Shown: in pieces, positions 7,348-31,795 of the stretch
How the letters are laid out: every line of letters starts with the position of its first letter
How positions within the stretch are numbered: position 1 is the stretch's first letter
DNA from: Okeania sp.
Lineage (GTDB): Bacteria; Cyanobacteriota; Cyanobacteriia; Cyanobacteriales; Microcoleaceae
NCBI RefSeq assembly: GCF_035285525.1
Contig: NZ_JAYKGW010000176.1
Location: 1-32,000, forward strand
Length of the DNA: 32,000 bases
Direction of reading: 5' to 3'
Position numbers and translations under genes: made by a program
Notes under the pieces: model-generated
What the model was told of the DNA's origin: nothing
The model's database searches: none
Seen by the model: only the letters and a program-made list of their open reading frames with translations

Positions 7348-7453
7348 AATTTTGGTAGCACAAGCATCTTGCTTGTTACAGCCTAGAAGGCTGTGTTACA
7401 AATTTTGGTAGCACCAGTATCTTGGTTGTTACAGCCTAGAAGGCTGTGTTACA
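7348..7453. repeat. Tandem 2 x 53-bp repeat, each unit carrying two hairpins
   Basis: Unit 1 (7348-7400) and unit 2 (7401-7453) read aattttggtagcac(a/c)ag(c/t)atcttg(c/g)ttgttacagcctagaaggctgtgttaca. A partial third unit follows. A solo copy acagcctagaaggctgtgttacaaa lies at about 23696-23722. Confidence 0.85.
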
Positions 7454-7498
7454 AATTTGTTAAAAGTTTCTTCCTTCTTCCTTCCTCCTTCTTCCCTC

Positions 7499-11867: not shown

Positions 11868-13109
11868 TTAACTATTCAAACGCACAGGTGAAATCCCAAA
11901 GGCAATCAACCGTGGCGGAATATCCCGCACTACAGGCAACCGCAAAAAAGCAGGAATAGTAAACTGCTGATTTTCATTCAGCGCACGAGCAATAATCCGT
12001 TTTTGAACTAACCCCTGAAACCACTGAATAACTCTGGTGGGAAACTCCCGTTGGCGCTGGACTTCTGCTAAATCCCACAAATGCCAACTTCCACGTTTTA
12101 GGGGCTCACTAAGAATATTTGTTGCTACAACTGCATCTTGAATAGCATAGTTAATACCCACCCCACCCACAGGCGACATGACATGAGCAGCATCGCCAAT
12201 AAGTAATAAACCAGGTCGATACCACTGGGGAAGACGACTAGACTCTACAGACAAAAAAGCAATCTGAGACCAATCTTCTAGTAGATGGGAGCGATGTAGC
12301 TGCCGCTAGGCTCCGCCAACGCTAAATTCTGGGACTAACTCAACCAAAGACTTTCGTAAAAAATCTATACCAGCAGTACGCAGTTTGGCGAAAGCACCCT
12401 TAGAAATCATATAAGCTACTTGCCAGAAATCTGAGCGATCGAGCAAAACTACCATCTTACCATAACCCACACGACCTGATAAACCATCAGCTTCCTCTGG
12501 CTTCTTTGGTAAACGAAACCACATGACATCCATGGGTGGAGAAGTTTTAACGGGATTAAACCCTGCTAACTGACGCATTCGGGAGAAACGACCATCTGCT
12601 CCGACTGTTAATAATGCTCGAACTTCGTGCCAACTTCCATGACTCCGATAACGTACTCCACGCACTACGCCATCTTCTTCGATAATTTCCTGGACGTTTG
12701 CACCCATGATTAAATTAAAATTGGGATACTTTTGTGCCTCAGTGGCAATAAAATCTAAAAATTTAGCTTGTGGCAGGATAGTAATATAAGGATATGGAGT
12801 TTTTAACCGACTGAAGTTAGTGAGAGCAATGTCACCAGTGGGAGAATTTAACTTCAGTGTGCGAGCTTTGGAATGGGGTAACTCTAACAAACGGTCAGCT
12901 AAACCTATTTGTGCCATTATTTCCATGACAGAGGGATGAATAGTATCACCACGAAAGTCGCGGTCAAAGTCTTGATGTAATTCTAACAGAGTAACTTGAA
13001 TACCTTGACGCGCTAACAATAATCCTAATACAACTCCTGCTGGACCAGCACCAACTATACAACAGGTTGTTTGTTGTATATCAATAATTTCATGGGTATG
13101 ATTAGTCAT
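11868..13109 (-). pseudogene. FAD-dependent monooxygenase (UbiH/PHBH-type), interrupted by a single in-frame TAG
   Basis: The N-terminal part has the dinucleotide fold CCIVGAGPAGVVLGLLLARQG and the C-terminal part has LLIGDAAHVMSPVGGVGINYAIQDA. The two ORFs (12306-13109 and 11868-12254) are in the same frame, separated by TAG (12306-12308) plus 17 sense codons. Confidence 0.8.
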
Positions 13110-13238: not shown

Positions 13239-13910
13239 CTAACGGTTTCCTCGTCTCATTCCTCTGTGTTTACGAAGTTGCTCTTTTTGTTCTTCAGTTA
13301 AAATATTTGCCATTTGTTGGTGTGATGACTGCATGATTTCCCGCATTTGAGTTTTTTGGTCTTCAGAGAGATTTAACTGCTGCATCAGTTTTCGTCCTCG
13401 TTGACCTTGTGCAGTCAATGTTTGGAACTTTTCCTGCTGTTCGGCAGTGAGAATATTTTCAATTTCAGCTTTGGTTTGTGCCTTGATTTCTTCCCACTGA
13501 GTTTTCTGTTCGGGAGTCAGATTCAAATTTTCAAGTCTTGCATGACCATGACCTCTCTGACGAAACTGCTCTCGTTGTTCTTCAGTTAAAAAACCTTCTA
13601 TTTGTTCGTGCGATGACTCCATTATTTGACGCACTTGGGTTTTTTGTTCTTCAGAGAGATTTAACTGCCAAATTGCTCGTTCTATTCCTTTTCCTTGATT
13701 TTCTGAAGTTAAATTTTGGAACTGTTGCTGTTGTTCTGGAGTCAGAATATTTTGAATTTTAGCTTTGGTTTCGGTTCTGATTTCTTCCCACTGAGTTTCC
13801 TGTTCGGGAGTCAAATTAAAATTTTTAGGATGGGCAATAACTTTCAAAGGATTAGCCAAAATCAGGGTAGCAGCAATGCCAAATAAAAGAGCTAAAGGAG
13901 AACGTTTCAT
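13239..13910 (-). CDS. Secreted LTXXQ-repeat protein (Spy/CpxP-like), paralog B
   Basis: 223 aa with signal peptide LALLFGIAATLILANPLKVIA and eight L(T/S)xxQ motifs in two half-repeats joined by an RGHGHAR linker. A 41-nt stretch is identical to paralog A (13274-13314 = 11178-11218). Confidence 0.8.
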   Translation of the reverse strand: MKRSPLALLFGIAATLILANPLKVIAHPKNFNLTPEQETQWEEIRTETKAKIQNILTPEQQQQFQNLTSENQGKGIERAIWQLNLSEEQKTQVRQIMESSHEQIEGFLTEEQREQFRQRGHGHARLENLNLTPEQKTQWEEIKAQTKAEIENILTAEQQEKFQTLTAQGQRGRKLMQQLNLSEDQKTQMREIMQSSHQQMANILTEEQKEQLRKHRGMRRGNR

Positions 13911-14165: not shown

Positions 14166-15455
14166 ATGGTGATGGTTTATACTAAAATTGCGCCCAAATT
14201 AATTCTCTACAAACTTATGATTACTTTCCCAAAAATAGCTAAACATCCTATTCGTTTTTTACTGTATTTAGAATGGATTTTATTGGTAATTATTGCTCTC
14301 AGTCAAATTTTTAAATTTCCTCTATATGGTCATGGTCGCCGAAGACATTTTTTTCATATATTAGAAACATCAAATCTACTCCCTTTCAATCTTTTTCTCC
14401 TGACATTATTTAGCATAATGGGAATATTTTTACCAATGAATAAATCCCGTTACTATAAAATTATTTACACTACTATCGAAATTATTTTAATAATCATTAT
14501 GTCATTCTTGGGGGGTTTGCAATTATCCCCAATTTTATGTGTGATTTTGGTAATTCGGGATTGTTTTATTTTTGTCGGGAAGCAAAATATAATTATTAAT
14601 ATTTTTGTTTTTTCTTTATTTACAGTTATCCAAATTCAAAGATTACAAAAACTGACTAGACTGCCATTATTTGCTAGAGAGAAATTTATCCTAGTTTTAT
14701 TCAGTTCAATAATTATGTTTGGATTATTAATAATTTTTCTCCAGCTATTAGTAAAAGCGGTAATGTCAGAACGAAAAAGTAGAGAAGAATTAGCAATTGC
14801 CAATGAAAAACTAAGACAATATGCTAGAAAAATAGAAAATATTGCTGCTTTAGAAGAACGAAATCGAATTGCTAGAGAAATCCATGATTCTTTAGGGCAT
14901 TATTTAACAGTTTTAAATGTTAATTTAGAGGCAGCTTGGAAACTAAGAAAATCAGAACCAGAAGAATCAATAGAATTTTTGGCAGATGCTAAACAACTAG
15001 GTTCAAAAGCTTTAAATGAAGTGCGTCAGTCAGTAGCAGCTTTACGAGATAATTGCTGGCTAAATCAATCTTTAGAATCAGCGATCGCTAATTTAACAGC
15101 AGATTTTTATAAGTCTACTGGAATTTTACCGACCAGCAATATAACTATTAATTATTCTCTAAATTATGAAGTAAAAATTGCTATTTATCGTATAGTACAA
15201 GAAGCATTAACTAATATTTATAAATATGCCTCAGCTACCACAGTAGAAATTAATATTTTTGCTACTAAAAATTTACATCTAATTGTTCAAGATAATGGCA
15301 AAGGATTCAACTTAAAACAAAATACTACTGGATTTGGTTTACAGGGAATGAGAGAACGTACTTTAGCATTAGGGGGTGAATTGGAAATTTTGACTAATCC
15401 TGGCGCCGGATGTAAAATAATCGCCACTTTTCCATTAGAAGTTGTAAACTCATAA
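14166..15455 (+). CDS. Membrane-embedded sensor histidine kinase, HisKA_3 (NarL/LiaS/DesK-type)
   Basis: 429 aa with about 6 N-terminal TM helices and no obvious periplasmic domain. H-box EERNRIAREIHDSLGH; ATPase motifs QEALTNIYKYA, QDNGKGF, GFGLQGMRER. Confidence 0.9.
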   Translation: MVMVYTKIAPKLILYKLMITFPKIAKHPIRFLLYLEWILLVIIALSQIFKFPLYGHGRRRHFFHILETSNLLPFNLFLLTLFSIMGIFLPMNKSRYYKIIYTTIEIILIIIMSFLGGLQLSPILCVILVIRDCFIFVGKQNIIINIFVFSLFTVIQIQRLQKLTRLPLFAREKFILVLFSSIIMFGLLIIFLQLLVKAVMSERKSREELAIANEKLRQYARKIENIAALEERNRIAREIHDSLGHYLTVLNVNLEAAWKLRKSEPEESIEFLADAKQLGSKALNEVRQSVAALRDNCWLNQSLESAIANLTADFYKSTGILPTSNITINYSLNYEVKIAIYRIVQEALTNIYKYASATTVEINIFATKNLHLIVQDNGKGFNLKQNTTGFGLQGMRERTLALGGELEILTNPGAGCKIIATFPLEVVNS

Positions 15456-15462
15456 TATTAAA

Positions 15463-15666
15463 GCAAGCATTCAGCTATTAGCATTCAGCTATCAGCTTTT
15501 GAATGTGGGAAGTAACAATTAAGGTTAGGTTATTGCCAATTTCATTTCCTAAAGTAAGCATTCAGCTATTAGCTTTTGAATCTGGGAAGTAACAATTAAG
15601 GTGTTGATAATTCTCCTCTAGTGTAATAATGAGTAAATGATAAATAGCTGATGGCTAAATGCTTAC
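15463..15666. repeat. GTAAGCATTCAGCTAT-type repeat cluster filling the kinase-regulator intergenic gap
   Basis: Direct copies lie at 15463-15525 and 15554-15602 (...agcattcagctat.agcttttgaat.tgggaagtaacaattaaggt). An inverted terminus agctgatggctaaatgcttac is at 15646-15666, and a further copy at 14013-14049 is upstream of the kinase. Confidence 0.75.
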
Positions 15667-15675
15667 AAATAAACT

Positions 15676-16326
15676 ATGATTAAAGTCTTATTAGTTGATG
15701 ATGAAAATTTAATCCGCCGTGGATTAAAAGCTTTATTAAAGTTAGAAAATAATTTAGAAATAGTAGGAGAAGCGGACAATGGAGAAACTGCAATAAGTCA
15801 AATAGAAAATCTACAACCAGATGTAGTTTTAATGGATGTCCGAATGCCTATTATGGATGGAGTCGCAGCTACTAAAGAAATTTGTCAGCGTTTTCCAGAA
15901 ATAAAAGTATTAATATTAACCACATTTGATGATGGTGAATATGTTACTCAAGCATTGAGACATGGAGCAGCAGGATACTTATTAAAAGATACACCTTCAG
16001 AAGAATTAGCTCAAGCAATTCAATCTGTATATAAAGGCTATACACAATTAGGACCAGGTATAGGTAAAAAAGTGATTTCTCAGATATCAATTCCTGTTAA
16101 TAACCCTCCTCAAAATTGGCAAAATTTAACACCAAGAGAAATAGAAATTTTACAGTTAATTGCTTCTGGTGCAAATAACCGAGAAATAGCTCAAAATCTC
16201 TACATTTCTGAGAAGACTGTCAAAAATCATATTACTAATATTTTGAGGAGGTTAAATTTGCGCGATCGCACTCAAGCTGCTATTTTTGCCTATTCAATTT
16301 ACAATGGTAAAGTTAGTGATTTATAA
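15676..16326 (+). CDS. NarL/FixJ-family response regulator (receiver + LuxR-type HTH)
   Basis: 216 aa with VLLVDDE, PDVVLMDVRMP, ILTTFDD and LLKD. C-terminal HTH is LTPREIEILQLIASGANNREIAQNLYISEKTVKNHITNILRRL. Confidence 0.92.
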   Translation: MIKVLLVDDENLIRRGLKALLKLENNLEIVGEADNGETAISQIENLQPDVVLMDVRMPIMDGVAATKEICQRFPEIKVLILTTFDDGEYVTQALRHGAAGYLLKDTPSEELAQAIQSVYKGYTQLGPGIGKKVISQISIPVNNPPQNWQNLTPREIEILQLIASGANNREIAQNLYISEKTVKNHITNILRRLNLRDRTQAAIFAYSIYNGKVSDL

Positions 16327-16363
16327 GTATAGCAATACCTAATATAGATTGTCAAATTTTATG

Positions 16364-16428
16364 GTAGGGGTTTGGTCTCCAAATCCCTGATAATTTGGCT
16401 TTTGAGACCAAACCCCTACAGTTTTTTT
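16364..16428 (+). terminator. Long hairpin (GTAGGGGTTTGGTCTC...GAGACCAAACCCCTAC) followed by a T7 run; likely intrinsic terminator of the kinase/regulator unit, built from the dispersed hairpin repeat
   Basis: 16-bp perfect arms (16364-16379 and 16404-16419), then agttttttt (16420-16428). The structure starts 38 nt after the regulator stop. Confidence 0.6.
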
Positions 16429-16520
16429 ACGAATGATTTCTTACTGCTGTAGTTTGATAAAAATTATAGGAATAAGAAAAATTGCTAATTAATTATTAAT
16501 TGTTAATTGTTAATTGTTAA

Positions 16521-17936
16521 TTATTTATTTACCTTTCTTTCTCTCAACTGCAACAATATTTGATCGTGTACTTCCCGCGTAATTGGATATAAATAAGCTA
16601 ACAATAATCCAACTACTAAAAATATAGTAGGTAAAGGACCGATCGCTACCCGAATGGCGAAAAGTGCTGACTCTGGTTGAGTAGGTGTAGGTTGCCCAGG
16701 AATATTTTCAATAAATCCAGCAATATCTAAAGCTATTCCCACTAAAAATAAACCAATAGCTAATCCTATTTTCTGTAAAAAAACCATAAAAGAATAAAAA
16801 ATTCCTTCTCTTCTTTGCCCTGTATTTAATTCATCTAAATCAATAACATCTGGTATCATTGACCAAGGAACTAAATAAGCAGTTGAGATACCAAAACCTG
16901 CTATTACTGCCAAAAAATACATTAAACCAACTTGTCCTGGCTGGATAAAAAATAATCCAATTTGAGCAATTATCCATAAACAAACCCCCATAAAATAAAC
17001 TGCTTTTTTACCTACTTTTTTACTCAGTAAACTCCAGACAAATAACATAATTAAAGCAGTACCTTGAACAGTGATCGCTACTTGGGGAAAAGTCGCTTCT
17101 GGGAGTTTCATCCAGTTAACAACAAAGTAAGGCAAAATCGAAGCTGTTAATTGAACTCCTAACCAAGAACAAAGATAAATTCCGATGACAAATAGAAACG
17201 GACCATTACTAAAAGCCACACGAATTTGTTCAACAATTGGTAAATTAGTATTATTATCTTCTTCTGGTTTTTTATTATTAGAAAGTGTCCGTTTCCGAGT
17301 ACCAAAAAAACACCAATATATAGGTAAAACTGCAATTATGGCACAGACTATACCTAATACTAAATATTGTTGAATAGGATTACCTTTGAAAAGAGAAAAA
17401 ATTAATTGAGCAATAACTAAAGAAAGAATACTACCACCAATAGAAAATGCAAACCTAAAACTATTTAAACTGGTACGTTCATTGTACTCTTGAGTTAGTT
17501 CAGGAGTTAGAGCAGCGTAAGGCAAATTAACAACAGTATAAGCAATATTAAATAGAACACCAATTATGACATAATACCCAAATAAAAAAGACTGATTTGT
17601 GCTAGGAACTATCCATTGTAAAAAAAACAAAATACCAAAAGGAATAGCACCAAAAACCATCCAAGGGTAACGTCTTCCCCAAGGATGAACCGTGCGATCG
17701 CTCATCACTCCAATTATTGGGTCATTAATCGCATCAGAAATTTTTCCAATCATCAAAATACTACCTGCAATACCGGCAGGTAAACCAGCAACATTAGTGA
17801 AGAAATATAGCAAAAAAAATACTTGAACATTAGCACAAATAGCTGGACCTAAGTCCCCAGCACCATAGGCTAATTTTGTCCAAAAACTTAGTTTTTGAGC
17901 TTGCATAGAAGGATTATTCATTGTTCTTGGAAACAA
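16521..17936 (-). CDS. MFS transporter of the glycoside-pentoside-hexuronide (GPH):cation symporter family
   Basis: 471 aa with 12 predicted TM helices. N-terminal signature is YGAGDLGPAI...ISDAINDPIIGVMSDRT...GRRYPW. Confidence 0.85.
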   Translation of the reverse strand: MFPRTMNNPSMQAQKLSFWTKLAYGAGDLGPAICANVQVFFLLYFFTNVAGLPAGIAGSILMIGKISDAINDPIIGVMSDRTVHPWGRRYPWMVFGAIPFGILFFLQWIVPSTNQSFLFGYYVIIGVLFNIAYTVVNLPYAALTPELTQEYNERTSLNSFRFAFSIGGSILSLVIAQLIFSLFKGNPIQQYLVLGIVCAIIAVLPIYWCFFGTRKRTLSNNKKPEEDNNTNLPIVEQIRVAFSNGPFLFVIGIYLCSWLGVQLTASILPYFVVNWMKLPEATFPQVAITVQGTALIMLFVWSLLSKKVGKKAVYFMGVCLWIIAQIGLFFIQPGQVGLMYFLAVIAGFGISTAYLVPWSMIPDVIDLDELNTGQRREGIFYSFMVFLQKIGLAIGLFLVGIALDIAGFIENIPGQPTPTQPESALFAIRVAIGPLPTIFLVVGLLLAYLYPITREVHDQILLQLRERKVNK

Positions 17937-18963: not shown

Positions 18964-19100
18964 ACCAAAAAATGAGGTATAAAACCTCCCCTTGTTCCGG
19001 GATGAAAAAAATTTAACACGGTTGCCGATAAATCAGTATTTCAAGTCTCCAACTCAAGTCGGAGGTTCACTCCCTAGTGATAACTGATAACTGATAACTA
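18964..19100. repeat. ~130-bp repeat with a conserved hairpin and (GATAACT)n heptamer tail, copy 1 (ends 40 nt upstream of ppsA)
   Basis: Aligns along its length with 29138-29256: accaaaaaat.agg.tat...gatgaaaaaaat.tttaac...ctcc.a.t..agtcggaggtt.c.ctc..t.gataactgataactga. Confidence 0.75.
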
Positions 19101-21726: not shown

Positions 21727-21824
21727 TAGACATCTCCAAAAATAAAAAATTAAATCAATTATCGGACAGAAATCATCTATTCTTTTCCCCTACTTCCTAC
21801 TCCCTCTTTTCTGGAGATGGCAAT
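21727..21824. mobile_element. TAGACATCTCCA MITE family, copy 2 (right terminus degenerate)
   Basis: tagacatctccaaaaataaaaaattaaatcaattatcggacagaaatcat...ttttctggagatggcaat. Confidence 0.7.
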
Positions 21825-22046: not shown

Positions 22047-23546
22047 ATGCTCAATGGTCTCATATTAATTCCACTTATAGGTGCAACCATTATTAGTTTT
22101 TGGCCAAGCACCCTTTCACCAAAATTAGCCCGTCAATTAGCCCTAATAGTGGCCATAATTACTTTAATATGGTCTGTCGTCCTACTTGTCCAATTTAATC
22201 CCCAAGATTCCCATCAACAATTCGTTTTTATACTTCCCTGGATAGACTCTCTGGGTTTAAGCTACTCCCTCGGAATAGACGGTTTATCCTTACCATTAGT
22301 AGTATTAAATGCTCTACTAACGGCTATTGCCATTTACGCTACAGATAAATCAATTAACAGACCTCGTTTTTATTACTCCCTCATTCTATTATTATCACTG
22401 AGCGTATTTGGAGCCTTTCTGGCTCAAGACCTACTACTATTTTTCATCTTCTACGAACTAGAATTAATTCCCTTATACCTATTAATAGCCATCTGGGGAG
22501 GACCAAGACGAGGTTACGCATCGACAAAATTTCTGATCTATACAGCCATTTCGGGAGTTTTAGTCTTAGCTGGATTTTTGGGAGTAGTCTGGTTCAGCGG
22601 TTCGTCCAATTTTGCCTACGACCAAGCAGTTGCTAATACCCTACCTTTAGGAACTCAACTATTATTATTAGGGGCAATAGTCATCGGGTTTGGCATTAAA
22701 ATTCCTTTAGTTCCTTTCCACACATGGTTGCCGGATGCTCACGTTGAAGCTTCTACACCAATTTCTGTACTTTTAGCAGGAGTTCTGTTAAAATTGGGAA
22801 CTTATGGTTTGCTGAGATTTGGATTAAATATGCTTCCGGAAGCTTGGGGTTATATTTCTCCTTGGTTAGCAATATGGGCGGTAGTTAGTGTGCTGTATGC
22901 TTCATTAATTGCTATTGCCCAAAAAGACATGAAAAAAATGGTCGCCTATAGTTCAGTTGGTCACATGGGTTACATTTTATTAGCTAGTGCTGCAGGAACT
23001 CCCCTCAGTATTTTAGGTACAGTATTCCAAATGGTAAGCCACGGTCTCATTTCTGCTTTACTATTTTTATTAGTGGGAGTAGTCTACAAAAAAGCTGGTA
23101 CTAGAGATATAGATGTCTTGCGTGGTTTATTAAATCCAGAACAAGGTTTACCAATGATTGGTAGTTTGATGATTTTGGGAGTAATGGCAAGTGCTGGTAT
23201 TCCGGGAATGGCTGGATTTATTTCCGAATTTTTAGTATTTAGAGGCAGTTTCAATGTTTTTACAGTTCCGACGCTTCTTTGTATGATTGGAACAGGATTA
23301 ACATCGGCGTATTTCTTGCTTTTAGCTAACCGAGTATTTTTTGGCAGGTTATCTCCAGTAGTTATTAATTTACCTTCTGTGCAATGGTCTGATAGAATAC
23401 CAGCAATTATTTTAGCAGTTTTGATTGTGATTTTAGGACTACAACCTAATTGGGTGGTGCGTTGGACTGAAACTGAAGCTAATAGCATGAGTATTGTCTC
23501 GCAGGTTGTTGAGAGGTCAGCGATCGCCTCAATAATTGATAATTAG
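22047..23546 (+). CDS. ndhD: NAD(P)H-quinone oxidoreductase chain 4 (NdhD family); likely the D4-type CO2-uptake paralog, given cupB downstream
   Basis: 499 aa with about 14 TM helices and conserved PLVPFHTWLPDAHVEASTPISVLLAGVLLKLGTYG and KKMVAYSSVGHMG. Confidence 0.9.
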   Translation: MLNGLILIPLIGATIISFWPSTLSPKLARQLALIVAIITLIWSVVLLVQFNPQDSHQQFVFILPWIDSLGLSYSLGIDGLSLPLVVLNALLTAIAIYATDKSINRPRFYYSLILLLSLSVFGAFLAQDLLLFFIFYELELIPLYLLIAIWGGPRRGYASTKFLIYTAISGVLVLAGFLGVVWFSGSSNFAYDQAVANTLPLGTQLLLLGAIVIGFGIKIPLVPFHTWLPDAHVEASTPISVLLAGVLLKLGTYGLLRFGLNMLPEAWGYISPWLAIWAVVSVLYASLIAIAQKDMKKMVAYSSVGHMGYILLASAAGTPLSILGTVFQMVSHGLISALLFLLVGVVYKKAGTRDIDVLRGLLNPEQGLPMIGSLMILGVMASAGIPGMAGFISEFLVFRGSFNVFTVPTLLCMIGTGLTSAYFLLLANRVFFGRLSPVVINLPSVQWSDRIPAIILAVLIVILGLQPNWVVRWTETEANSMSIVSQVVERSAIASIIDN

Positions 23547-23704
23547 GGTTTTCTGATTAAATCAGGACTTAGGCAAATTAGTAGAGGGCGAATACCATTC
23601 GCCCCTACAGATTATGTATATTTTCTTGTTGCTTAAATCCTAATAAATACCGCGATATTATACAGCAGATTTCATATCAGTGAAGCAAACATAAGACAGC
23701 CTAG

Positions 23705-23885
23705 AAGGCTGTGTTACAAAAGATGCAGAAATATGGAAAAAATTAGCTAGTTCTTGAATTTGATTTTCTGACAGTTAAGATTTGCCATTCAATACTTCAT
23801 AATAGGATAAATTAATTGCCTAAAAAAGGAACTGAATCTTGAAGAAAAAGTAGAGATTCTTCTTATAAAGCTTTCAGAAATTCGA
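23705..23885 (-). pseudogene. Relic of an XRE-family HTH gene (stops and frameshift)
   Basis: Minus-strand frames read FLKAL*EESLLFLQDS.. and then, in another frame, AINLSYYEVLNGKS*LSENQIQELANFFHISASF, a typical HTH_XRE layout. Confidence 0.35.
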
Positions 23886-24059
23886 CACCACAAATATTAG
23901 GAATTAGTTCCTATTTTTATTCATAGTTTATAAACTATAGCAATACTAAATAGGTTGCGATAATAAATCAAAAAGTCAATAAAACAACTGATTTATCGGG
24001 AACCGTAACTTTTACCTATTTCCTGTTCCCTATTCCCTAGCGCGTAGCGCCATAAAAAA

Positions 24060-24339
24060 ATGAGTGTTAATGTGAAATTTCCAGAATAATTGTTGATTGC
24101 TTGTCGTGAAGAAAAAGAAGTTTTTCAGCGACGAGTAATGGTTTTAACTTTGGGTAAACTTTATGAGGAAGGAAAAATTTCATCAGGAGTTGGTTCGGAG
24201 ATTTTGGGATGCGATCGCGCTCGAGTTTTATCGTCTAATTAGCGAACCAGGTTTTGGTGTTATTAACTAGAGCTTCTGCTGAGTTTGAGGAAGAAGCAAA
24301 GACGAGTCGGGATTTAGGTGAGAAATTGTCTGGTCTATG
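24060..24339 (+). pseudogene. Decayed UPF0175-family antitoxin
   Basis: Reads MSVNVKFPE*LLIACREEKEVFQRRVMVLTLGKLYEEGKISSGVGSEILGCDRA, then frame changes to EFYRLISEPGFGVIN* and AEFEEEAKTSRDLGEKLSGL*. The terminal TGA overlaps the next ATG (ATGA at 24337-24340). Confidence 0.65.
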
Positions 24340-24809
24340 AAAGTTGTTGTTAATGCTATCTAATTGCTTTGGCTATCTTACAACGTTTGGAACTTTTGCC
24401 CCAGTTATTTCAGGAAGTTTTTGTCCCTCCTATTGTTTTTCAAGAAGTGGCCATTCAGGGTGCTAATAGACCAGGTAGGGGGAATATTGCTAGTCAGACA
24501 CAGATGATTATCCAAGCTCCCGAAGCTAATTCAACTATCGAACCTCTGCTTCTAGGATTAGATGCTGGAAAATTTCAGGTCATTTTGTGAGGCCGTGAAC
24601 TCGAAGCTGATTGGGTATTAATTGATGAGCGTTTGGGAAGGCGTGTTGCTCTAAATTTAGGTTTGCCAGTGAAGGGAACTTTGGGAGTTTTGCTGGTAGC
24701 TTTTCATGCAGGTATGATTTCTAAGATAGAAGCAAAAGAATCAGTACAGGAATTAGTTAGAAATGGGCTTCGTCTTAGTTCCCAACTAATAGAAATGTTT
24801 GCATCATAG
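24337..24809 (+). pseudogene. Decayed DUF3368 (PIN-like) toxin
   Basis: Reads MKVVVNAI* then, after a frameshift, IALAILQRLELLPQLFQEVFVPPIVFQEV...LDAGKFQVIL*(TGA 24588-24590)GRELEADWVLIDERLGRRVALNLGLPVKGTLGVLLVAFHAGMI... Confidence 0.7.
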
Positions 24810-24987
24810 TTGGACAAATTTTAGAAGAGGCGTTCATTAATTGATATATGATTATGTTATAATAAGGCGCTACAAATTTATGATGTAGAAGTTCCTAATA
24901 ATCTCGACTCAGCTATATTTTAATTTTACTAAATATGAGTCTTATTTTATAAACAGATAATAACCAACTAATTTAGGGAAAAACAGT

Positions 24988-26118
24988 ATGACAAACACAA
25001 TTTTAAAATCTCAAAAACATCCACTTTCAGAATATATTAATCGCTTAAAATCTGGTCAAGCTCTATTAAAAGATAGCCCAGAAAATGTCTTAGAAGTTGT
25101 GGGAATTTTGAAAAGTTATGGCATTGTTTTAGATGCTTATTCTAAAAATCTTAATTACATTGCCGAATATCAATTTTTAGAAATGTTTCCCTTCTTTAAA
25201 TACTTTAATGGGGAAATTTCAGTAGATAAATATTTCAAGTTTATGTGGCATGACAGAATTAATTTTGAATATGCAGAATATTGCATGAAAGGAATGTTAT
25301 GGCATGGAGGTGGAGGTCTAGATAAATATTTAGATTCAGACCAATTTAAACAATTAGCAAAAGCAGCAATAGATGCCAAAGCTATAGGGAATTTAGTCTT
25401 AATGCCACTTAATAAATTATTTCCAGATTTTTTACCAGATTTGGTACGTCAACAAGCTTACTATAGTGGTTTAGGTCAATTTTGGCGGGTAATGAGTGAT
25501 ATTTTTATGACCTTATCTGATAAATATGACCAAGGTAGAATGACATCTATTCCTCAAGTAGTAGAGCATATTTTATCAGGGTTAGTTGCAGCAGCAAATT
25601 TACCAATTACTTTTGCTGTAAATATTAAAGGTAAACATTATGAAATAATTCCTAAATCAGTAGGTTTAACATTTTTAATGGATACAGCAGTTCCTTATGT
25701 TGAAGCAATTTTTTTCCGAGGAACTCCATTTTTAGGAACAGTTTCTTATAATGCTCAAGCTCAACAAATCAACCCCGATCAAAGTCAATTTACTTATGGT
25801 GCTTTATATGCCGATCCTTTACCTATTGGTGGTGCTGGTATTCCACCTACATTATTAATGCAAGATATGCGACATTTTTTACCAGATTATCTTCTAGAAG
25901 TTTATTACAAAACTAACCGAGGTACAGATAATTTACGAGTGAAAATTTGTGAGACTTTTCAAAAGTCAATGTTCTGTGTCACAACCGCAGCAGTTTTGGG
26001 TTTAGCACCTCATCCTTTAGATACAGAAAACCCAGAGGAACAAGCAGCAAATCAAAGTTATTTAGAATATTGGATGGATAGATTTTTAACATCAAGATTA
26101 CAAGTTGTGAATAGTTAG
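24988..26118 (+). CDS. cupB: CO2 hydration protein of the NDH-1 CO2-uptake complex (CupB/ChpX-type by length and ndhD linkage)
   Basis: 376 aa. The N-terminal LSEYINRLKSGQALLKDSPENVLEVVGILKSYG and the rest match my memory of the ChpX/ChpY family. It is shorter than typical CupA. Confidence 0.8.
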   Translation: MTNTILKSQKHPLSEYINRLKSGQALLKDSPENVLEVVGILKSYGIVLDAYSKNLNYIAEYQFLEMFPFFKYFNGEISVDKYFKFMWHDRINFEYAEYCMKGMLWHGGGGLDKYLDSDQFKQLAKAAIDAKAIGNLVLMPLNKLFPDFLPDLVRQQAYYSGLGQFWRVMSDIFMTLSDKYDQGRMTSIPQVVEHILSGLVAAANLPITFAVNIKGKHYEIIPKSVGLTFLMDTAVPYVEAIFFRGTPFLGTVSYNAQAQQINPDQSQFTYGALYADPLPIGGAGIPPTLLMQDMRHFLPDYLLEVYYKTNRGTDNLRVKICETFQKSMFCVTTAAVLGLAPHPLDTENPEEQAANQSYLEYWMDRFLTSRLQVVNS

Positions 26119-26195
26119 TTATTAGAACTTACGCAAATAAACCCGGTTTATAGGAGAAACCGGGTTTCTAGTTTCCCCTAGCGAAGTCCTGTTAT

Positions 26196-26284
26196 TAGAC
26201 ATCTCCAAAAATTAAAAAGATCATCAATTATTATCTGGAAATAATTAATTACTCCCCCTGTTTCCTCTTTTATGGAGATGTCTA
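26196..26284. mobile_element. TAGACATCTCCA MITE family, copy 3
   Basis: tagacatctccaaaaattaaaaagatcatcaattattatctggaaataattaattactccccc...ttttatggagatgtcta. Confidence 0.8.
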
Positions 26285-26639
26285 TTTGATAATTTCTAAC
26301 AATTATAACTACTTTAGCAATCCTATTTCAAAGGAAGAAGAAAGAAGAAGGAAAAAACCTTTAATAACAAGGAATAAATAATAGAGATAACTATCTAAAA
26401 TTAATGAGAGCAGCTATCTTTTAAAAATTTATGATCGACATCTACCTTTTGTAGCATTCTTTTTTCAAAATGGTATTATGGAGAAACCGAGTTTATGAAC
26501 TATTTTTTTTGGTTTTAACCAAAATATCACGGCAATAAACCCGGTTTCAGTCAAATTAACCATTATCAAAATTCTCACAAATAATTTAGAATTGCTATTC
26601 TATATTTGTCTACCATTCTATTCATAAATAATCAGAAGA

Positions 26640-27671
26640 ATGAATAAGTTAGTCCATTACTTTGAAAGAAATGCTAAATTCATAATAGTCCTGATATTAT
26701 TTCTCTTTTCAGTTGCTTTAATATTCCTTCCTAAACCACCTAAAAATCTAAATGACTGGATATTAATTTTGAATAATATTGGATTTAACCTCTTAGGTGC
26801 TGTAATCGCCTTTTTGGTTTTTCAAGTAATTGTTGAAGGAATAAATAAATTAGGTGAACAACGTGGGGTTAAAATTGATGCTCTAAACAAAGATGATTTT
26901 ATTAAAAAAGTAATCAAGTCTAAGAATACGGTGAGAATTATGGAAACCTGGACTGATTTACTTAGTTCTAATCAATTTTTAACGACTTTTAGTGATGCTA
27001 TAGAAGCATCAGTCAGGAACAATAATACTATATTTGAAATTTTATTACTAAATCCAGAAGATACTTATTTAGTGAAAAGACGTCAAGAAGATTTATCCAA
27101 TAATGAAGATGTTGAAATAAACATTTATCGAAGCATAAGTACAATTCAAAAAATACTCCAAAACTTGGGGAATATGGGTAAAAATTTTCAAGTCAAACTG
27201 TACAGTAGAAATCCATCTCTAGCTATTTACATGAATGACGACGATCTCTTTTTAACTTTTTTTAGAGCTAATCTTAACACTTCTCAGGGAGAGCAGTTAA
27301 AGCTTCCTAGAAACTCAACTATTGGAACGTTTATTATTGAGGAGATGTTTTATGAAATATGGGAAGATACAAAGAATACGAAAGACCTTAACAATATAGT
27401 TTTTTACTGTATTAATATTAACAATAAACTCTATGATGTAAAATATATTTTTCAAGAAAATGTTTTCTATATTCAGAGTTCAGATTTAACAACTGATAGT
27501 ATCAACAACAATATTTTCCAGGACACTATTATTGAGGTAGATGATCAACAATACAAATTAACACCAGAAGCAAAAAGGAAAGAAGATTTACCTCTTAGGG
27601 TTCAAGAACTTTTTGATAATAAATATCCGACAACAGAAGATATTTTCTTTGAATTAATTAAGTTGAGATAG
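26640..27671 (+). CDS. Hypothetical 2-TM membrane protein with a large unassigned cytoplasmic domain
   Basis: 343 aa. Two N-terminal helices (FIIVLILFLFSVALIFL; ILILNNIGFNLLGAVIAFLVFQVIV). The soluble part has alternating beta/alpha-like segments (VRIMETW.., FEILLLNPE.., VKLYSRNPSLAIYMNDDDLFLTFF). The gene is very A+T rich by eye. Confidence 0.7.
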   Translation: MNKLVHYFERNAKFIIVLILFLFSVALIFLPKPPKNLNDWILILNNIGFNLLGAVIAFLVFQVIVEGINKLGEQRGVKIDALNKDDFIKKVIKSKNTVRIMETWTDLLSSNQFLTTFSDAIEASVRNNNTIFEILLLNPEDTYLVKRRQEDLSNNEDVEINIYRSISTIQKILQNLGNMGKNFQVKLYSRNPSLAIYMNDDDLFLTFFRANLNTSQGEQLKLPRNSTIGTFIIEEMFYEIWEDTKNTKDLNNIVFYCININNKLYDVKYIFQENVFYIQSSDLTTDSINNNIFQDTIIEVDDQQYKLTPEAKRKEDLPLRVQELFDNKYPTTEDIFFELIKLR

Positions 27672-27678
27672 ATGAACT

Positions 27679-28986
27679 TCAGCTATCAAGTTCAATTTTT
27701 GAAATATTAATCATCCTTCTAAAATTATCATAGGATTTACCTGAATTAATCAGATAATTTACCTTAGATATACATTCTTGAATCTGTTCTATCAAGTCTT
27801 TTTCTTTTAGTAAAAAAGCATTATTTGCTACAAGTATAGATGCTGCATTGGCAAGAATAAAATCTCTTTTACCTTGGATTTCATAAGTATTTTCATTGGT
27901 TAAAATTCTATAAAATAAATCCCTTTCAGTTTCAATTTCTTTCTGTTCCTCTATTTGGTTTATTGGTACTCTTTTAAGCGAGATATCTTCAGGAGAAAAT
28001 TCCAGTATTTTGATGCTATCTAAATCAATTTTAATCAATAGGTTATTTGGTCTTTCTTCTTGAACATCTCGATAAGCATTTGATATCTCATCTATTCCTT
28101 CGTATGAGTGAACAATTATGCCTGTACTTCCTAGTTCTAAATATATGCCAATCACATAAGGCAGCATCCCTATATGAGATATACCAGTTGTATGGTTAAC
28201 TGGATTTAATAACTGTGCATTTGGAGCTATAATTTTAAATATATCTATTGAAATAGGCAAATCTAAATTTCTCACAGTTGAATGCCAATTATTTTGCTGA
28301 TTCTGATAATTATATTCTAAAGTTTTTAAGTTTTCTTCCCATAATTCTATTCTGGCTTGCTTAAGATTATTGGAGTAAGGAAAACCAAGCTCGCTTAAAG
28401 TAATATATGCAAAATTATACTTTTCTAAACTTTCATTTATAGCCTTGATATCTATCCCTTTTTCATTATACCCAAATGCTTTAATTGCTTGATAGCTTCC
28501 ATGCAAAGAAGTAACATTACCTGTACCAGTTTTACAAATTCTGATTAAAGGTGAAACTATAATTGAAGCCATAGTTGTTGCATGAATTGTTTTGATTAAA
28601 TCTCCTCCACTTCCAAAAGCATGATCGTGTAGTAACAACTTGAGATTATTATTGTTTTTATGAATATGACTTAAGGTCTTATTTCTAACATAATTAGTCA
28701 AAAAGTTTACTTGTCTGAAGCCAACCTTACCATTGCCTGGTGCTATTTCCAAAAGAGTATTTTTTATGCTTTCTACTTCTTCATTTGGATTGATACATTT
28801 CTCAAAATAATTAATCAGCTTTTTGTCACTTATCGGACTAATTATTGCTTCATTTTCTAAGAATTTCCTAAAAACATCTGCTATTGAACCAAGTTTATTT
28901 ATGACTTCATTATTTTTAAGGTTTAATTGCTGAGAATAAAGTAAACGAAAATCTTCTTTTTTTATTGTAATAGTCCGAGGTGTCAT
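27679..28986 (-). CDS. Highly divergent glycosyltransferase-family-3 fold protein (TrpD / thymidine phosphorylase / YbiB-like), orphan
   Basis: 435 aa. HAFGSGGDLIKTIHATTMASIIV..ICKTGTGNVTSLHGSYQAIKAFG parallels TrpD GTGGDG..NISTAAA...KHGNR..SS..GSADVLEALG. FKIIAPNAQLLNP parallels FN.LGPL.NP, IVHSYEGIDEIS parallels VVHG.DGLDEIS, and DFILANAASIL parallels D.VLLNAAAAL. Confidence 0.75.
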   Translation of the reverse strand: MTPRTITIKKEDFRLLYSQQLNLKNNEVINKLGSIADVFRKFLENEAIISPISDKKLINYFEKCINPNEEVESIKNTLLEIAPGNGKVGFRQVNFLTNYVRNKTLSHIHKNNNNLKLLLHDHAFGSGGDLIKTIHATTMASIIVSPLIRICKTGTGNVTSLHGSYQAIKAFGYNEKGIDIKAINESLEKYNFAYITLSELGFPYSNNLKQARIELWEENLKTLEYNYQNQQNNWHSTVRNLDLPISIDIFKIIAPNAQLLNPVNHTTGISHIGMLPYVIGIYLELGSTGIIVHSYEGIDEISNAYRDVQEERPNNLLIKIDLDSIKILEFSPEDISLKRVPINQIEEQKEIETERDLFYRILTNENTYEIQGKRDFILANAASILVANNAFLLKEKDLIEQIQECISKVNYLINSGKSYDNFRRMINISKIELDS

Positions 28987-29137
28987 ATCAACAAATTAAG
29001 TTTAAAGTATTTGATGAAATCTTTATTAAGAGCCACTACAGTGGGAGCATCTTCCTCCAGCACTAGATATTTCTTGTTTCCTGTATACCATTAAGTATGA
29101 AAGTATAATTAACAGAACTTGCCCAAAATATTAAATC

Positions 29138-29256
29138 ACCAAAAAATTAGGGTATGTGCTTCCCCTTTTAAGGAGATGAAAAAAATATTTAACTTCAGCA
29201 TTTTCAACCTCCGAGTTTAGTCGGAGGTTCCCTCTCTACTGATAACTGATAACTGA
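29138..29256. repeat. ~130-bp hairpin + (GATAACT)n repeat, copy 2
   Basis: Aligns with 18964-19100. It contains a perfect 9-bp stem, aacctccga-gtttag-tcggaggtt (29206-29229). Confidence 0.75.
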
Positions 29257-29680
29257 AATAACACACTACTTGTAAAAGTTAACAGTCGTTAACCCCTGCT
29301 AGATATGCTTGTTTTAGGTCAGTCCTGGTTAATTTTATATACAGCTATTTCAGACTAATGATGTACAAGTTTAAAAAGTGAAATTATTGTAGCATAGGCA
29401 TCTTGCCTGTTAGCTGTGTACCTAATAGCAACGGGAAATACTCTAATTATTTAGGGACGGACAAAAAATTATTTAAATATATCTGGAATAACTAACCACC
29501 ATTTAGAAAAATATGTGATAATATGTGCCTCTAGTTATACTCATCATTATAAAAGTGGCCATTAGGATGTATAAATATAATGGTTATAGGTTAGTAATAT
29601 TCTATTCACCAATAACCACACAGGGTACATAGATATATCTGTCTTAATTTAGAGGATTCAATTAAAGTGTTAGGGTTGAT

Positions 29681-31795
29681 ATGAAAAATATATATTCAGA
29701 AAATCGTTTGTTCTTTCTCAAAGGTACCCAAATGGGAAAAAATCTTATGTTGCGTTGGTTACTACCCAGTATACTCAGCGTTTTTGTCTTAGGAGTTCCT
29801 TCTGAAGCAACAACTCTAGAATCTTGGCGCTTTGAACAGGATCGGAACCAATTGTCCTTTACCACACAAGGTGGTGTTCAGCCAAAAGCCCAATTAGTTA
29901 ATAACCCAACTCGATTAATTATAGACTTGCCAGGAACAACTTTAGGTGGTGTCCAGACTTCCCAAGTTGTCGGTGGGGCAATTAAAGCAATTAGAGTAGG
30001 ACAATTTAATCCGGAAACAGCTCGAATAGTAGTAGAACTAAATAATGGTTATACTATTGACCCAAAAGAAGTAGAATTTCAGGGGATTTCTTCTAGCAGA
30101 TGGAATGTACAAATACCAACACCTAAACTAATTACTTCCACTACAAATATTGATATTGCACCTCAGTCTTCTCCCTCACCATCTCAAAATTCCCAACCTT
30201 TACGTCGTCCACCATCTCAAAATTCCCAATCTTCAATTCTACTGCCTCCACGTTCACCCTCTCCTCCTCGCAGAATAGAAAGGTCAATCAATCAAAATAG
30301 ACCAAAACCTAATAATACTCTTTCCTCCAATTCAACTGCTACTAATGGGACATCTACTCTTGTACAAGATATCGAAGTAACAAAAGAGGGAATAGTTCTC
30401 AAAACAAGTGGTAAATTACCAGAAATTGAGCTGAAGCAGAGCAAAGACCGCAACTGGATGACCATTGATGTTCTTAATGCTACTTTAACTATCAAAAATT
30501 TCCAGCAAAATCAAAAGTTTGATGAGTTTGGATTAACAATTACTCGACTAACTCAACATTCAACTTCACCAGCAGTAGTTCGTTTAACAATAAAGTTCCC
30601 AGATAAAAAGACTAAATGGCAAGCTCGTGCTTATATGGGAGGAATAGCATTATGGCCTGAAGGAGAAGCACCACCGACAATTAATCAAGGTACTGGTTTT
30701 GCTCTAATTAACTCTCTGGAATTAAAAAATGGTAATGAATTAGTTATTACTGGAGATAAACCCCTAAATTATACCACTGGTTGGGATTCTGAAACAGATG
30801 CTTATGGAATTACTATATACAATGCTAAGGTAGATAGGCGATTTAGATTACCACCCCAAGAAGTTGGCAGTCCTTTAGTCTGGACAAAAATACGTCAGGA
30901 AGGTCCAGAAACAGTTTCAATTCTGGTTAAACCTGCTACTAACGTTAAAATTGCAGAAGTAACTCAGATTACTCCAGAAAAGTTATCTCTGGCAATGGGT
31001 TGGGGTAGTATCGGGAATGCACCTCCGGGTTGGAAGCCAAATCCTAGACCAGAATCTTCTAATACGAGACCTTCACCATTTCCCAGGAGAGAAAATTCAC
31101 CGCCTCAAAATTCTCGTGGAAACACTACTACAACGAGAAGATGGCCTTTCCCTCCCCCTCGTCGCAATACTCAACAGCCTAATACTAATAATAGTAGTTC
31201 TAATTCTCGTTTTGCCTTGCCTAATCAACTACCTCGACGTAATGGACGATTATTGATAGTGATAGACCCCGGACATGGGGGACCGACTGATTTGGGTGGG
31301 GTTGGTTTTAATGGTATACGGGAAAAGGATATTGTGTTGCCTATTTCATTAGAGGTAGCTAAAATTCTGGAGCAGAATAATATACAGGTGCTTCTGACTC
31401 GGGAGACAGACCGGGATTTGGATTTGCCACCACGAGCAGAATTTGCTAATCGGGTAGGAGCAGATTTATTTGTGAGTATTCATGCTAATGCTATTAGTAT
31501 GAGTCGTCCTGATGTAAATGGTTTAGAGACTTTTTATTATGAAAGTGGACTTGTTTTAGCACAGTATATTCAGAATAGTATGTTGCAAGCTTTTCCGACT
31601 ATGAATAATCGTGGTGTGAAGCAAGCCCGTTTTTATGTATTAAGAAAGACTGAGATGACTGCTGCTTTGGTAGAGGTCGGTTTTGTTACTGGTAATTATG
31701 ATTGGAGGATACTTGCAGATCCTGCTCAACGTAGTCGGATGGCGCAGGCGATCGCTCGTGGCATATTAGAATATGTTAAAGCTTATTCTCGATAA
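29681..31795 (+). CDS. amiC: N-acetylmuramoyl-L-alanine amidase, AmiC-type, with N-terminal AMIN domains (cell-wall/septal amidase)
   Basis: The C-terminal Amidase_3 domain has LIVIDPGHGG, FVSIHANA and ALVEVGFVTG. N-terminal AMIN modules (e.g. LESWRFEQDRNQLSFTT...RLIIDLPG...IKAIRVGQF...ARIVVEL) are separated by Pro/Ser/Asn/Gln-rich linkers. The real start is more likely the ATG at 29732 (MGKNLMLRWLLPSILSVFVLGVPSEA signal peptide). Confidence 0.88.
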   Translation: MKNIYSENRLFFLKGTQMGKNLMLRWLLPSILSVFVLGVPSEATTLESWRFEQDRNQLSFTTQGGVQPKAQLVNNPTRLIIDLPGTTLGGVQTSQVVGGAIKAIRVGQFNPETARIVVELNNGYTIDPKEVEFQGISSSRWNVQIPTPKLITSTTNIDIAPQSSPSPSQNSQPLRRPPSQNSQSSILLPPRSPSPPRRIERSINQNRPKPNNTLSSNSTATNGTSTLVQDIEVTKEGIVLKTSGKLPEIELKQSKDRNWMTIDVLNATLTIKNFQQNQKFDEFGLTITRLTQHSTSPAVVRLTIKFPDKKTKWQARAYMGGIALWPEGEAPPTINQGTGFALINSLELKNGNELVITGDKPLNYTTGWDSETDAYGITIYNAKVDRRFRLPPQEVGSPLVWTKIRQEGPETVSILVKPATNVKIAEVTQITPEKLSLAMGWGSIGNAPPGWKPNPRPESSNTRPSPFPRRENSPPQNSRGNTTTTRRWPFPPPRRNTQQPNTNNSSSNSRFALPNQLPRRNGRLLIVIDPGHGGPTDLGGVGFNGIREKDIVLPISLEVAKILEQNNIQVLLTRETDRDLDLPPRAEFANRVGADLFVSIHANAISMSRPDVNGLETFYYESGLVLAQYIQNSMLQAFPTMNNRGVKQARFYVLRKTEMTAALVEVGFVTGNYDWRILADPAQRSRMAQAIARGILEYVKAYSR

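Follow-up and report, generated by a model that had tools for sequence, protein, structure and literature searches.

The 32,000-nucleotide window analysed here, a stretch of chromosome from the cyanobacterium Okeania sp., contains two intact open reading frames (ORFs) that converge tail to tail: a rightward gene for a 343-residue membrane protein and a leftward gene for a 435-residue enzyme of the TrpD fold. We refer to the first protein as the partner and to the second as the enzyme. The partner gene stops with TAG at 27669-27671 and the enzyme gene with TGA at 27679-27681 on the reverse strand. Upstream of the pair is the gene for a ChpXY/CupB CO2-hydration protein (cupB; Pfam E-value 1e-188), and downstream of it the gene for an AmiC-type amidase with AMIN and Amidase_3 domains (Pfam). 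A preliminary description, made from the sequence alone, had placed two tail-to-tail genes with stops 7 nt apart between cupB and amiC, and both ORFs are exactly as given there. It had also assumed a source among the Nostocales; Okeania lies outside this order. The coordinates of all features are collected in Table 1.

The enzyme matches the Pfam family Glycos_transf_3 (PF00591) with an E-value of 1.8e-12. Its AlphaFold2 (AF2) model, for which 26 family members served as input alignment, has a pLDDT of 88.7 and a pTM of 0.91. The best Foldseek matches of the model are anthranilate phosphoribosyltransferases (AnPRTs, the TrpD enzymes) from Mtu, Tko and Sso, with E-values of ~1e-13, TMt values of 0.73-0.81 and a sequence identity of 14-19%. 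No trp genes were found in the window or in the related loci examined. The fold had been recognised in the preliminary description as that of glycosyltransferase family 3 (TrpD) outside a tryptophan context, and Pfam, AF2 and Foldseek agree on this assignment. The family is small and well separated from other proteins: 31 matches have E-values of <=6e-66, and the next protein follows at 1e-4. It occupies 19 loci among 185,579 species genomes (one genome per species), and its hosts are filamentous or complex cyanobacteria, Ktedonobacteria and other Chloroflexota, Sorangium, and a Polyangiales metagenome-assembled genome (MAG).

AnPRTs bind the 5'-phosphate of phosphoribosyl pyrophosphate (PRPP) in a GTGGD loop and pyrophosphate through a lysine loop, and hold two Mg2+ ions with an Asp/Glu pair; in the M. 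tuberculosis enzyme, K135 binds pyrophosphate, and N138 and R193 bind anthranilate (PMC9835598). In our alignment of 26 sequences of the enzyme family (A2), the motifs H-D-H-x-F-G-S-G-G-D, C-K-T-G-T-x-N-V-T-S-x-H-G-S-x-Q, A-R and G-I-D-E are invariant. GSGGD, K152, T159/S160, G163 and D299-E300 are aligned to the PRPP and Mg2+ residues of AnPRT. The loop from K152 to Q166, in which K152, T153, G154, T155, T159, G163, S164 and Q166 are invariant, aligns to 'AKHGNKAVSSKSGSA' of the solved AnPRTs in a profile alignment. R212 is also invariant in the family and would be the equivalent of the carboxylate-binding Arg of AnPRT (R193), an equivalence read from the motif and not from an aligned position. 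The enzyme thus shares with TrpD the two-domain fold, the GTGGD loop, the pyrophosphate-binding Lys, the Ser/Thr-rich loop and the Mg2+-binding Asp-Glu pair. It differs in having KTGT for KHGN, with loss of the anthranilate-contacting Asn, in the lack of a PF02885 match in the Pfam scan, and in a block of ~35-50 residues after the AR motif (family profile positions ~200-250) that the profile matches to solved AnPRTs skip. The retention of the PRPP and Mg2+ residues, combined with the replacement of the His and Asn of KHGN by Thr, suggests that the protein is an active PRPP/Mg2+-dependent phosphoribosyltransferase with an acceptor other than anthranilate.

A grouping of the enzyme with TrpD or YbiB orthologues had been named in advance as evidence against the earlier proposal, but the enzyme is no bona fide TrpD, YbiB or thymidine phosphorylase. 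It scores 76.1 bits against the NCBIfam model TIGR01245 (trpD), below the equivalog cutoff of 199.05; together with the invariant KTGT and the missing trp context, this excludes a genuine TrpD despite the common fold and PRPP/Mg2+ motifs. TrpD2/YbiB proteins are likewise TrpD-fold paralogues outside tryptophan synthesis, but they do not have the PRPP motif (PMC9835598), which is invariant in the enzyme family, and no YbiB structure is among the profile matches at E<=1e-3. As to the type II nucleoside phosphorylases (NP-II; thymidine and pyrimidine-nucleoside phosphorylases), PF00591 is the only domain found, the model ends in helices and does not contain the C-terminal alpha/beta hammerhead domain, and there are no NP-II chains among the 25 PDB profile matches of the family.

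The partner was much harder to place. It has no match in Pfam (E<=1, save a chance match to DUF5347), NCBIfam or PADLOC, and a search of the PDB with its sequence profile returned only chance matches to transmembrane (TM) helices. A word-seeded search gave only two homologues, both from Scytonema; an exhaustive profile search of 1.84 billion proteins gave 422 representatives at E<=1e-3, many of them full-length (~350 residues) and including Streptomyces hypothetical proteins. The AF2 model (pLDDT 92.6, pTM 0.80) consists of a helical hairpin (residues 12-29 and 38-75), an alpha/beta domain (residues 77-245) and a beta-rich domain (residues 247-343). The hydropathy profile has two TM segments at residues 8-35 and 40-72; model and hydropathy therefore both agree with the N-terminal two-helix hairpin and soluble domain described before. 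The second TM helix contains the motif N-x-G-x-N-L-L-G, in which N46, G48, N50 and G53 are invariant among close homologues. Lys and Arg residues before TM1 and after TM2 suggest that the soluble part faces the cytoplasm. The NCBI annotation begins the protein at residue 44 (300 residues), which would remove TM1 and part of TM2 (26640-26768). Conservation of TM1 and the longer N-terminus in homologues supports the 343-residue start, and the deposited start is probably wrong.

In a Foldseek search with the soluble part of the partner, TrmBL2 was the best match (E 1.7e-5), followed by phospholipase D (PLD), vaccinia F13, PssA, PLD3 and Nuc (E 3e-5 to 5e-4). DUF5919 (PF19319) is matched by 26 of 43 aligned members of the partner family (best E-value 6.1e-7), and PLDc_2 is matched weakly by two. 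The window partner itself has no PF19319 match at E<=1; a relative on the metagenomic contig L042 passes the gathering score (25.3 vs 23.5). We found no mention of DUF5919 in the literature searched. The partner is not a catalytic member of the PLD superfamily: the fold is that of PLD, but the family alignments have no conserved His, Lys or Asp at the position of the HKD motif (HxK(x)4D). The invariant or nearly invariant residues are T103, L135, L137, P139, R148, Y188, P192, F207, F231, F237, W241, K328 and Y329, the last two as judged from alignment A3. In the effector-binding domain of TrmB, the sugar sits in a cleft that a sheet subdomain and a beta-barrel form (PMC4158304), and the C-terminal layout of the partner appears analogous to these two subdomains.

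With DUF5919 and the TrmB effector domain (PF11495), the partner has in common a PLD-like sheet domain followed by a beta-rich subdomain, as well as the nearest solved fold, TrmBL2. Moreover, relatives of DUF5919 type fused to a helix-turn-helix (HTH) domain adjoin members of the enzyme family. The partner differs from these regulators in carrying a 2-TM hairpin in place of the HTH and in scoring below the Pfam thresholds. Given a PLD fold without HKD and a TrmB-like layout, we read the partner as a predicted membrane-anchored, cytoplasm-facing ligand receptor rather than an enzyme. It belongs to no common housekeeping family; membership of one would have counted against the earlier proposal. 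The SLATT-type 2-TM logic invoked there is not supported, as the Pfam scan (E<=1) gave only the chance DUF5347 match and PADLOC gave nothing.

The PLD fold raises the alternative that the pair modifies lipids or the cell envelope, with the partner acting as a divergent transferase (akin to cardiolipin or phosphatidylserine synthase) that joins a lipid to a phosphoribosyl donor or acceptor from the enzyme. PssA and phospholipase D are indeed among the Foldseek matches, and ClsA has the same architecture of two N-terminal TM helices followed by a PLD domain. We nevertheless consider this idea very improbable, given that the partner contains a single PLD-like domain without conserved H, K or D at the HKD positions, that the closest solved fold is that of a non-catalytic TrmB-family protein, and that the same domain also occurs in soluble proteins, fused to HTH or TIR.

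Convergent pairs of the two genes are present in five cyanobacterial genera: Okeania (the window and a close relative), Scytonema, Mastigocladopsis (M. repens), Waterburya and Dolichospermum. In Scytonema hofmannii they carry the neighbouring locus tags WA1_20660 and WA1_20665. The gap between the genes is 18 nt in Dolichospermum, 151 nt in Scytonema and 170 nt in Mastigocladopsis. The flanking genes are unrelated: in Dolichospermum the pair is bordered by psbA-like and MBOAT genes, in Mastigocladopsis by an integrase, a patatin and transposases of the Tn3 and IS66 types, and in Scytonema by CHAT/STAND/WD40, DUF1822 and sigma-like genes. Dulcicalothrix retains a 67-residue C-terminal remnant of the partner at the equivalent position beside the enzyme gene. 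The pairwise identities of enzyme and partner are correlated (r=0.92), and the Okeania pair is an outlier for both proteins (~50% and ~41%, compared with ~70% and 54-71% among the others).

Outside the cyanobacteria, the enzyme is found next to DUF5919-like proteins of other architectures. On two contigs (L035 and L042), a TIR_2-DUF5919-LuxR-HTH protein is encoded codirectionally, 4 nt downstream of the enzyme gene. On L040, an HTH_XRE-DUF5919-like protein is immediately upstream of the enzyme and codirectional with it, as is a soluble DUF5919-like protein on L020. On L017, a 2-TM DUF5919-like protein is encoded 2.2 kb from the enzyme. The TIR_2-DUF5919-LuxR protein lies at L042:500-1768, and the same protein at L035:2605-3681; its TIR domain scores above the Pfam threshold. 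Both contigs are metagenomic, and we have the impression that their neighbouring genes are Chloroflexota-like.

The preliminary description had proposed to ask whether the two genes are neighbours in unrelated genomes, and they are: as convergent neighbours with unrelated flanks in five genera, as co-diverging proteins, and in three other arrangements. It might still be argued that two unrelated genes happen to share a variable intergenic slot, since the convergent orientation implies separate transcripts and the window flanks are housekeeping genes and repeats. This explanation is close to refuted by the adjacency of two rare families in five cyanobacterial genera and, in three further arrangements, in other phyla, and by their co-divergence; we regard it as hardly tenable. 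The repeated adjacency in shuffled orders and among unrelated flanks makes chance neighbours unlikely. The pair is a real, conserved and undescribed two-gene module, and we consider functional coupling of its components highly probable. The pair is not TrpD, TrpD2, an NP-II phosphorylase, a catalytic PLD, a SLATT protein or any PADLOC system. The earlier idea of an enzyme working with a small-TM protein gains from the finding that the same receptor-like domain is also fused to TIR or HTH modules; its SLATT component and any direct evidence for defence did not materialise.

Table 1. Features of the convergent gene pair and its surroundings in the 32,000-nt Okeania sp. window.
Feature	Position	Strand	Basis and remarks
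Partner gene, 343 aa: 2-TM hairpin, PLD-fold DUF5919-like domain, beta-rich C-domain	26640-27671	+	Intact ORF; AF2
N-terminal membrane hairpin	26673-26834	+	TM1 ~aa 12-29, TM2 ~aa 38-65; model helices
PLD-fold alpha/beta domain, DUF5919-like, without HKD	26868-27374	+	aa 77-245; Foldseek, Pfam matches of the family
Beta-rich C-domain with conserved terminal K-Y-P motif	27378-27668	+	aa 247-343; strands 247-341 in the model
Spacer between the convergent stops	27672-27678		7 nt; no room for a terminator
Enzyme gene, 435 aa: TrpD fold (Glycos_transf_3), rare isolated family	27679-28986	-	Intact ORF; Pfam, AF2, Foldseek
D299-E300 codons	28087-28092	-	TrpD Mg2+-binding D251/E252; invariant in A2; aligned to AnPRT GMDE
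K152-T-G-T-x-N-V-T-S-x-H-G-S-x-Q166 codons	28489-28533	-	TrpD KHGN..SS.SGS loop, H and N replaced by T
G125-S-G-G-D129 codons	28600-28614	-	TrpD GTGGD PRPP loop; invariant in A2; profile-aligned to solved AnPRTs
Dispersed repeat resembling a miniature inverted-repeat transposable element (MITE), upstream of the partner gene	26196-26284		16-nt inverted ends 26196-26211 and 26269-26284; generic, not part of the module
Dispersed repeat upstream of the enzyme gene	29219-29256		92% match to 19057-19094; generic

The module seems not to be stably maintained. The only close relative found (L026; represented by the MAG GCA_905169125.1) has the pair at the same cupB-amiC site, with a nucleotide identity of 84% over the pair, 88% over cupB and ~81% over amiC. 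On the evidence of this one relative, the recent presence/absence indel that the preliminary description had suggested looking for is not supported, although the pair there is broken: the enzyme gene has a frameshift near residue 280, and the partner gene is cut into three ORFs. These frameshifts come from three assemblies, probably of one sample, and need confirmation at the level of reads. The Dolichospermum partner gene is broken into two ORFs (293 and 129 residues), and in Calothrix PCC 7103 the enzyme gene is truncated. The Dolichospermum split (L002:9321-10620; also L003 and L004) falls exactly between the conserved GKQLK and LPVDSP, with non-homologous sequence on both sides of the break, as if a short element had inserted; it is identical in a complete genome and two metagenome assemblies. 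Together with the Dulcicalothrix remnant, these broken, split and truncated genes indicate a dispensable module that is frequently lost. Its distribution is patchy (filamentous cyanobacteria, Ktedonobacteria, Polyangiales) and decayed copies recur, which supports the accessory status put forward earlier.

Losses affect the partner more often than the enzyme. This bias is what one might expect of a toxin-antitoxin-like pair, in which a 2-TM membrane toxin would be restrained by the TrpD-like protein, either through binding or through removal of an activating ligand, and the abutting convergent genes would tune their relative expression by transcriptional interference. The enzyme is intact where the partner is split (Dolichospermum), reduced to a remnant (Dulcicalothrix) or absent (Fortiea), and convergence with short gaps (7-170 nt) is conserved across the cyanobacteria. 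On the other hand, a mere binding antitoxin would not need the full set of catalytic motifs that the enzyme has kept, the genes in other phyla are codirectional with a partner free of TM helices, and the partner homologue on contig L031 occurs without the enzyme. We judge a toxin-antitoxin relationship to be quite improbable.

The base composition of the pair does not mark it as foreign. Its GC contents of 0.284 and 0.290 are the lowest of all genes in the window (0.361 overall; 0.43 for ppsA, 0.434 for ureC and 0.389 for ndhD, where ureC and ppsA are the labels of the preliminary description), so that the greater A+T richness noted there is real. The GC content at third codon positions (GC3) of 0.24 and 0.195, however, does not depart from that of the other genes in the window (0.166-0.42; cupB, 0.17), and the low GC can be attributed to a Lys/Asn/Ile-rich amino-acid content rather than to foreign codon usage. 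Nor is low GC peculiar to the pair, given a second such stretch at 14166-17936 (GC 0.30-0.33), which encodes a HisKA_3 histidine kinase, a LuxR-type response regulator and an MFS_2 sugar-type transporter. The absence of HIP1 sites, cited before as weak evidence, holds for the pair but is uninformative: the window has 17 sites but none in the 7.5 kb from 24212 to 31747, which include cupB and most of amiC, and the ~1.25 sites expected in 2.35 kb make a count of zero not significant.

Short repeats do flank the pair, as had been observed, but they are generic intergenic repeats and not boundaries. The first 63 nt of the MITE-like repeat (26196-26258) match 1101-1163 at 90%, and 23 nt match 21727-21749; a further repeat at 26509-26548 matches 6341-6380. 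Copies in other intergenic regions (at 1101, 6341, 19057 and 21727) argue that the repeats do not delimit the pair. With GC3 in the window range, HIP1 missing over 7.5 kb and generic repeats, we reject a foreign-island signature. Promoter and terminator scans were uninformative in such A+T-rich DNA; the terminator scan found no terminator-like site between the two genes. A GC-rich hairpin at 26139-26167 (AAACCCGGTTT...AAACCGGGTTT) directly follows the cupB stop, and its halves recur ~330-400 nt downstream (26480-26547); it may act as a terminator or represent a repeat unit.

What might the two proteins do together? We tentatively favour, with slightly less than even confidence, a single accessory module in which a PRPP-dependent TrpD-fold enzyme is coupled to a PLD-fold/DUF5919 receptor on a 2-TM anchor. 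The enzyme would make or consume a ribose-phosphate compound other than phosphoribosyl-anthranilate. The hairpin would anchor the partner and present its non-catalytic PLD-fold and beta-rich domains to the cytoplasm, where they would act as a receptor for the compound or for the enzyme itself. Binding of the ligand might in turn switch the hairpin to another state, which could for instance involve oligomerisation or permeabilisation of the membrane. Other lineages have this receptor domain joined to a DNA-binding HTH or to TIR instead. The folds, the motifs and the conserved linkage are established here; that the enzyme is active, that the partner is its ligand receptor and that the output is at the membrane are inferred. 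The most speculative part of the proposal is that the module could take part in conflict, in abortive infection or in the signalling of multicellular bacteria.

Should the linkage be functional, it would offer a first clue to the function of DUF5919, namely as a ligand receptor of the TrmB kind. It would also define a fourth functional branch of the TrpD fold, distinct from TrpD, from TrpD2 and from the nucleoside phosphorylases, in which PRPP chemistry would be kept and directed to a new acceptor. Finally, it would add a candidate enzyme-plus-receptor module with swappable outputs. The immune and signalling systems of filamentous cyanobacteria, Ktedonobacteria and myxobacteria are poorly explored experimentally, and the hypothesis can be tested with two small genes.

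The known effectors of CBASS, Pycsar and Thoeris combine a constant receptor with swappable modules. The pair resembles these systems in having one enzyme gene and a constant receptor-like domain joined to different modules (2TM, TIR, HTH), and in its patchy and decaying occurrence. It differs in that it contains neither a CD-NTase, cyclase or ThsB-type enzyme nor a SAVED, STING, cNMP-binding or SLOG receptor, in that the cyanobacterial genes are convergent and not operonic, and in being known from sequence alone. In an extended and, in our view, rather doubtful version of the proposal, the pair would belong, as its cyanobacterial version, to an undescribed immune or signalling pathway that works through a small molecule, with a PRPP-derived messenger, a DUF5919 receptor and 2-TM pore, TIR or HTH outputs. 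In Actinobacteria, receptors of this family would respond to another messenger, the product of KamA-like radical-SAM enzymes.

A role in defence or conflict is plausible, the evidence for it being circumstantial. Kaur, Iyer, Burroughs and Aravind (2021; PMC8195603) predicted conflict systems in multicellular bacteria from EACC2-caspase/ECF sigma/DUF1822 loci, without mention of TrpD-like or phosphoribosyltransferase components. The host range of the pair is the same (filamentous cyanobacteria and other multicellular bacteria), and the Scytonema pair is sandwiched between two caspase(CHAT)-DUF1822-sigma-like clusters; the window differs in containing no caspase, DUF1822 or ECF-sigma gene. The enzyme genes of Dulcicalothrix and Calothrix PCC 7103, where the partner is a remnant or absent, stand beside similar caspase-type loci, and the Waterburya pair is near a CHASE2 protein. 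STAND-WD40 proteins, transposases and patatin are also among the neighbours of module members. Our literature search found nothing on TrpD together with conflict systems.

Several observations weigh against coupling of enzyme and receptor in one module, or against its service in conflict. The caspase loci may be neighbours through synteny inherited within the Nostocales, and the pair in the window is placed among housekeeping genes with normal GC3. Neither protein matches a PADLOC-DB 2.0 model (E<=1), and the same search gave no match for the TIR-DUF5919 relative, the KamA-like protein described below or the Ktedonobacterial neighbour. Among the neighbours tested with PADLOC, only the patatin protein matched, so that the defence island looked for by the preliminary description was not seen. 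Searches of 50,697 phage and 72,556 plasmid records with tblastn found no homologue of either protein. Of the conflict- or defence-like character suggested before, there remain the circumstantial neighbours and the TIR variant, but no PADLOC match of the pair and no carriage by phages or plasmids. The HTH-fused receptor variants would fit ordinary one-component metabolite-responsive regulation equally well, and the convergent orientation in cyanobacteria rules out co-transcription.

The two families also keep other company, which tells against coupling as well. No DUF5919-like gene was found within 5 kb of the enzyme in 12 Ktedonobacteria loci, Sorangium, the Polyangiales MAG and Fortiea, with L017 as the exception, and a 3-kb contig (L031) has a close partner homologue without the enzyme. 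The 12 Ktedonobacteria loci (L008-L011, L013-L018, L021 and L023; e.g. L013:5163-11745) share a conserved neighbourhood of their own. All have a divergent HTH_XRE-NB-ARC/STAND-WD40 protein of ~1200 residues and an upstream protein of 216-260 residues that has no Pfam match and looks sigma-like by eye only; at least six have a downstream convergent AhpC/TSA gene. An AhpC gene is also located 3.4 kb from the Sorangium copy of the enzyme. We rejected the possibility that the small upstream protein is a sigma factor akin to the sigma-like genes of Scytonema, as it has no Pfam match and an hhalign probability of <1%.

In Streptomyces and related Actinobacteria, the partner homologues are paired with a KamA-like radical-SAM gene, codirectional and downstream in all four loci (L024:6001-8409, L025:6001-8355, L044:3662-6048 and L045:2419-4766), another point against a fixed tie to the TrpD-like enzyme. 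The flanks of these loci are unrelated; the KamA-like genes are 64-71% identical between loci and have the CxxxCxxC motif. The downstream gene is not a hidden TrpD-like enzyme (hhalign probability 0.05). The 2-TM DUF5919-like and KamA-like proteins look like a second, undescribed, conserved pair of receptor plus enzyme. Since the partner family pairs with different enzymes in different phyla, the ligand cannot be the same across the family.

Much of this evidence bears on the main competing explanation, which holds that the pair is a specialised-metabolism module unconnected with conflict. The TrpD-like enzyme would salvage or build a niche ribosylated metabolite, and the DUF5919-type protein would be a ligand-responsive regulator: a transcription factor when fused to an HTH, and a membrane-tethered sensor or transport accessory when fused to the 2-TM hairpin. 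The HTH_XRE fusion directly upstream of the enzyme (L040) and the DUF5919-LuxR fusion (L042) are as this explanation predicts, and the fold matches TrmB-family sugar-sensing regulators. In Sorangium, the genes for the enzyme and an FAD oxidoreductase run in the same direction within one cluster, and LodA, a halogenase-like gene and YcaO lie nearby. The host lineages have a rich secondary metabolism, and the pair has given no PADLOC, phage or plasmid signal. Yet the loci have no biosynthetic or transport genes in common, the TIR-fused variant and the 2-TM hairpin are unusual for metabolic regulators, and the frequent pseudogenisation and the variable or mobile-element-rich neighbourhoods are not what a metabolic role would suggest. 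We think a purely metabolic role somewhat unlikely.

The remainder of the window is ordinary chromosome, with gyrA, an alpha/beta hydrolase, two LTXXQ proteins, a two-component system, the MFS_2 transporter and an NdhD-type subunit. Between 10861 and 13910, two secreted proteins of 224 and 223 residues bracket the gene for an FAD-binding oxidoreductase (12306-13109). The first of them (10861-11535) matches Pfam LTXXQ, and the second (13239-13910) is called its paralogue from the similar N-terminus. Compared with the close relative L026, where ~234 nt are unaligned, the window has ~1.25 kb of extra DNA between ndhD and cupB (23493-24969). This extra DNA holds a 73-residue ORF (24369-24590) that has no Pfam match and resembles, by eye, a PIN-like/DUF3368 fragment, and its 25-nt stretch at 23696-23720 occurs twice more near 7378-7455.

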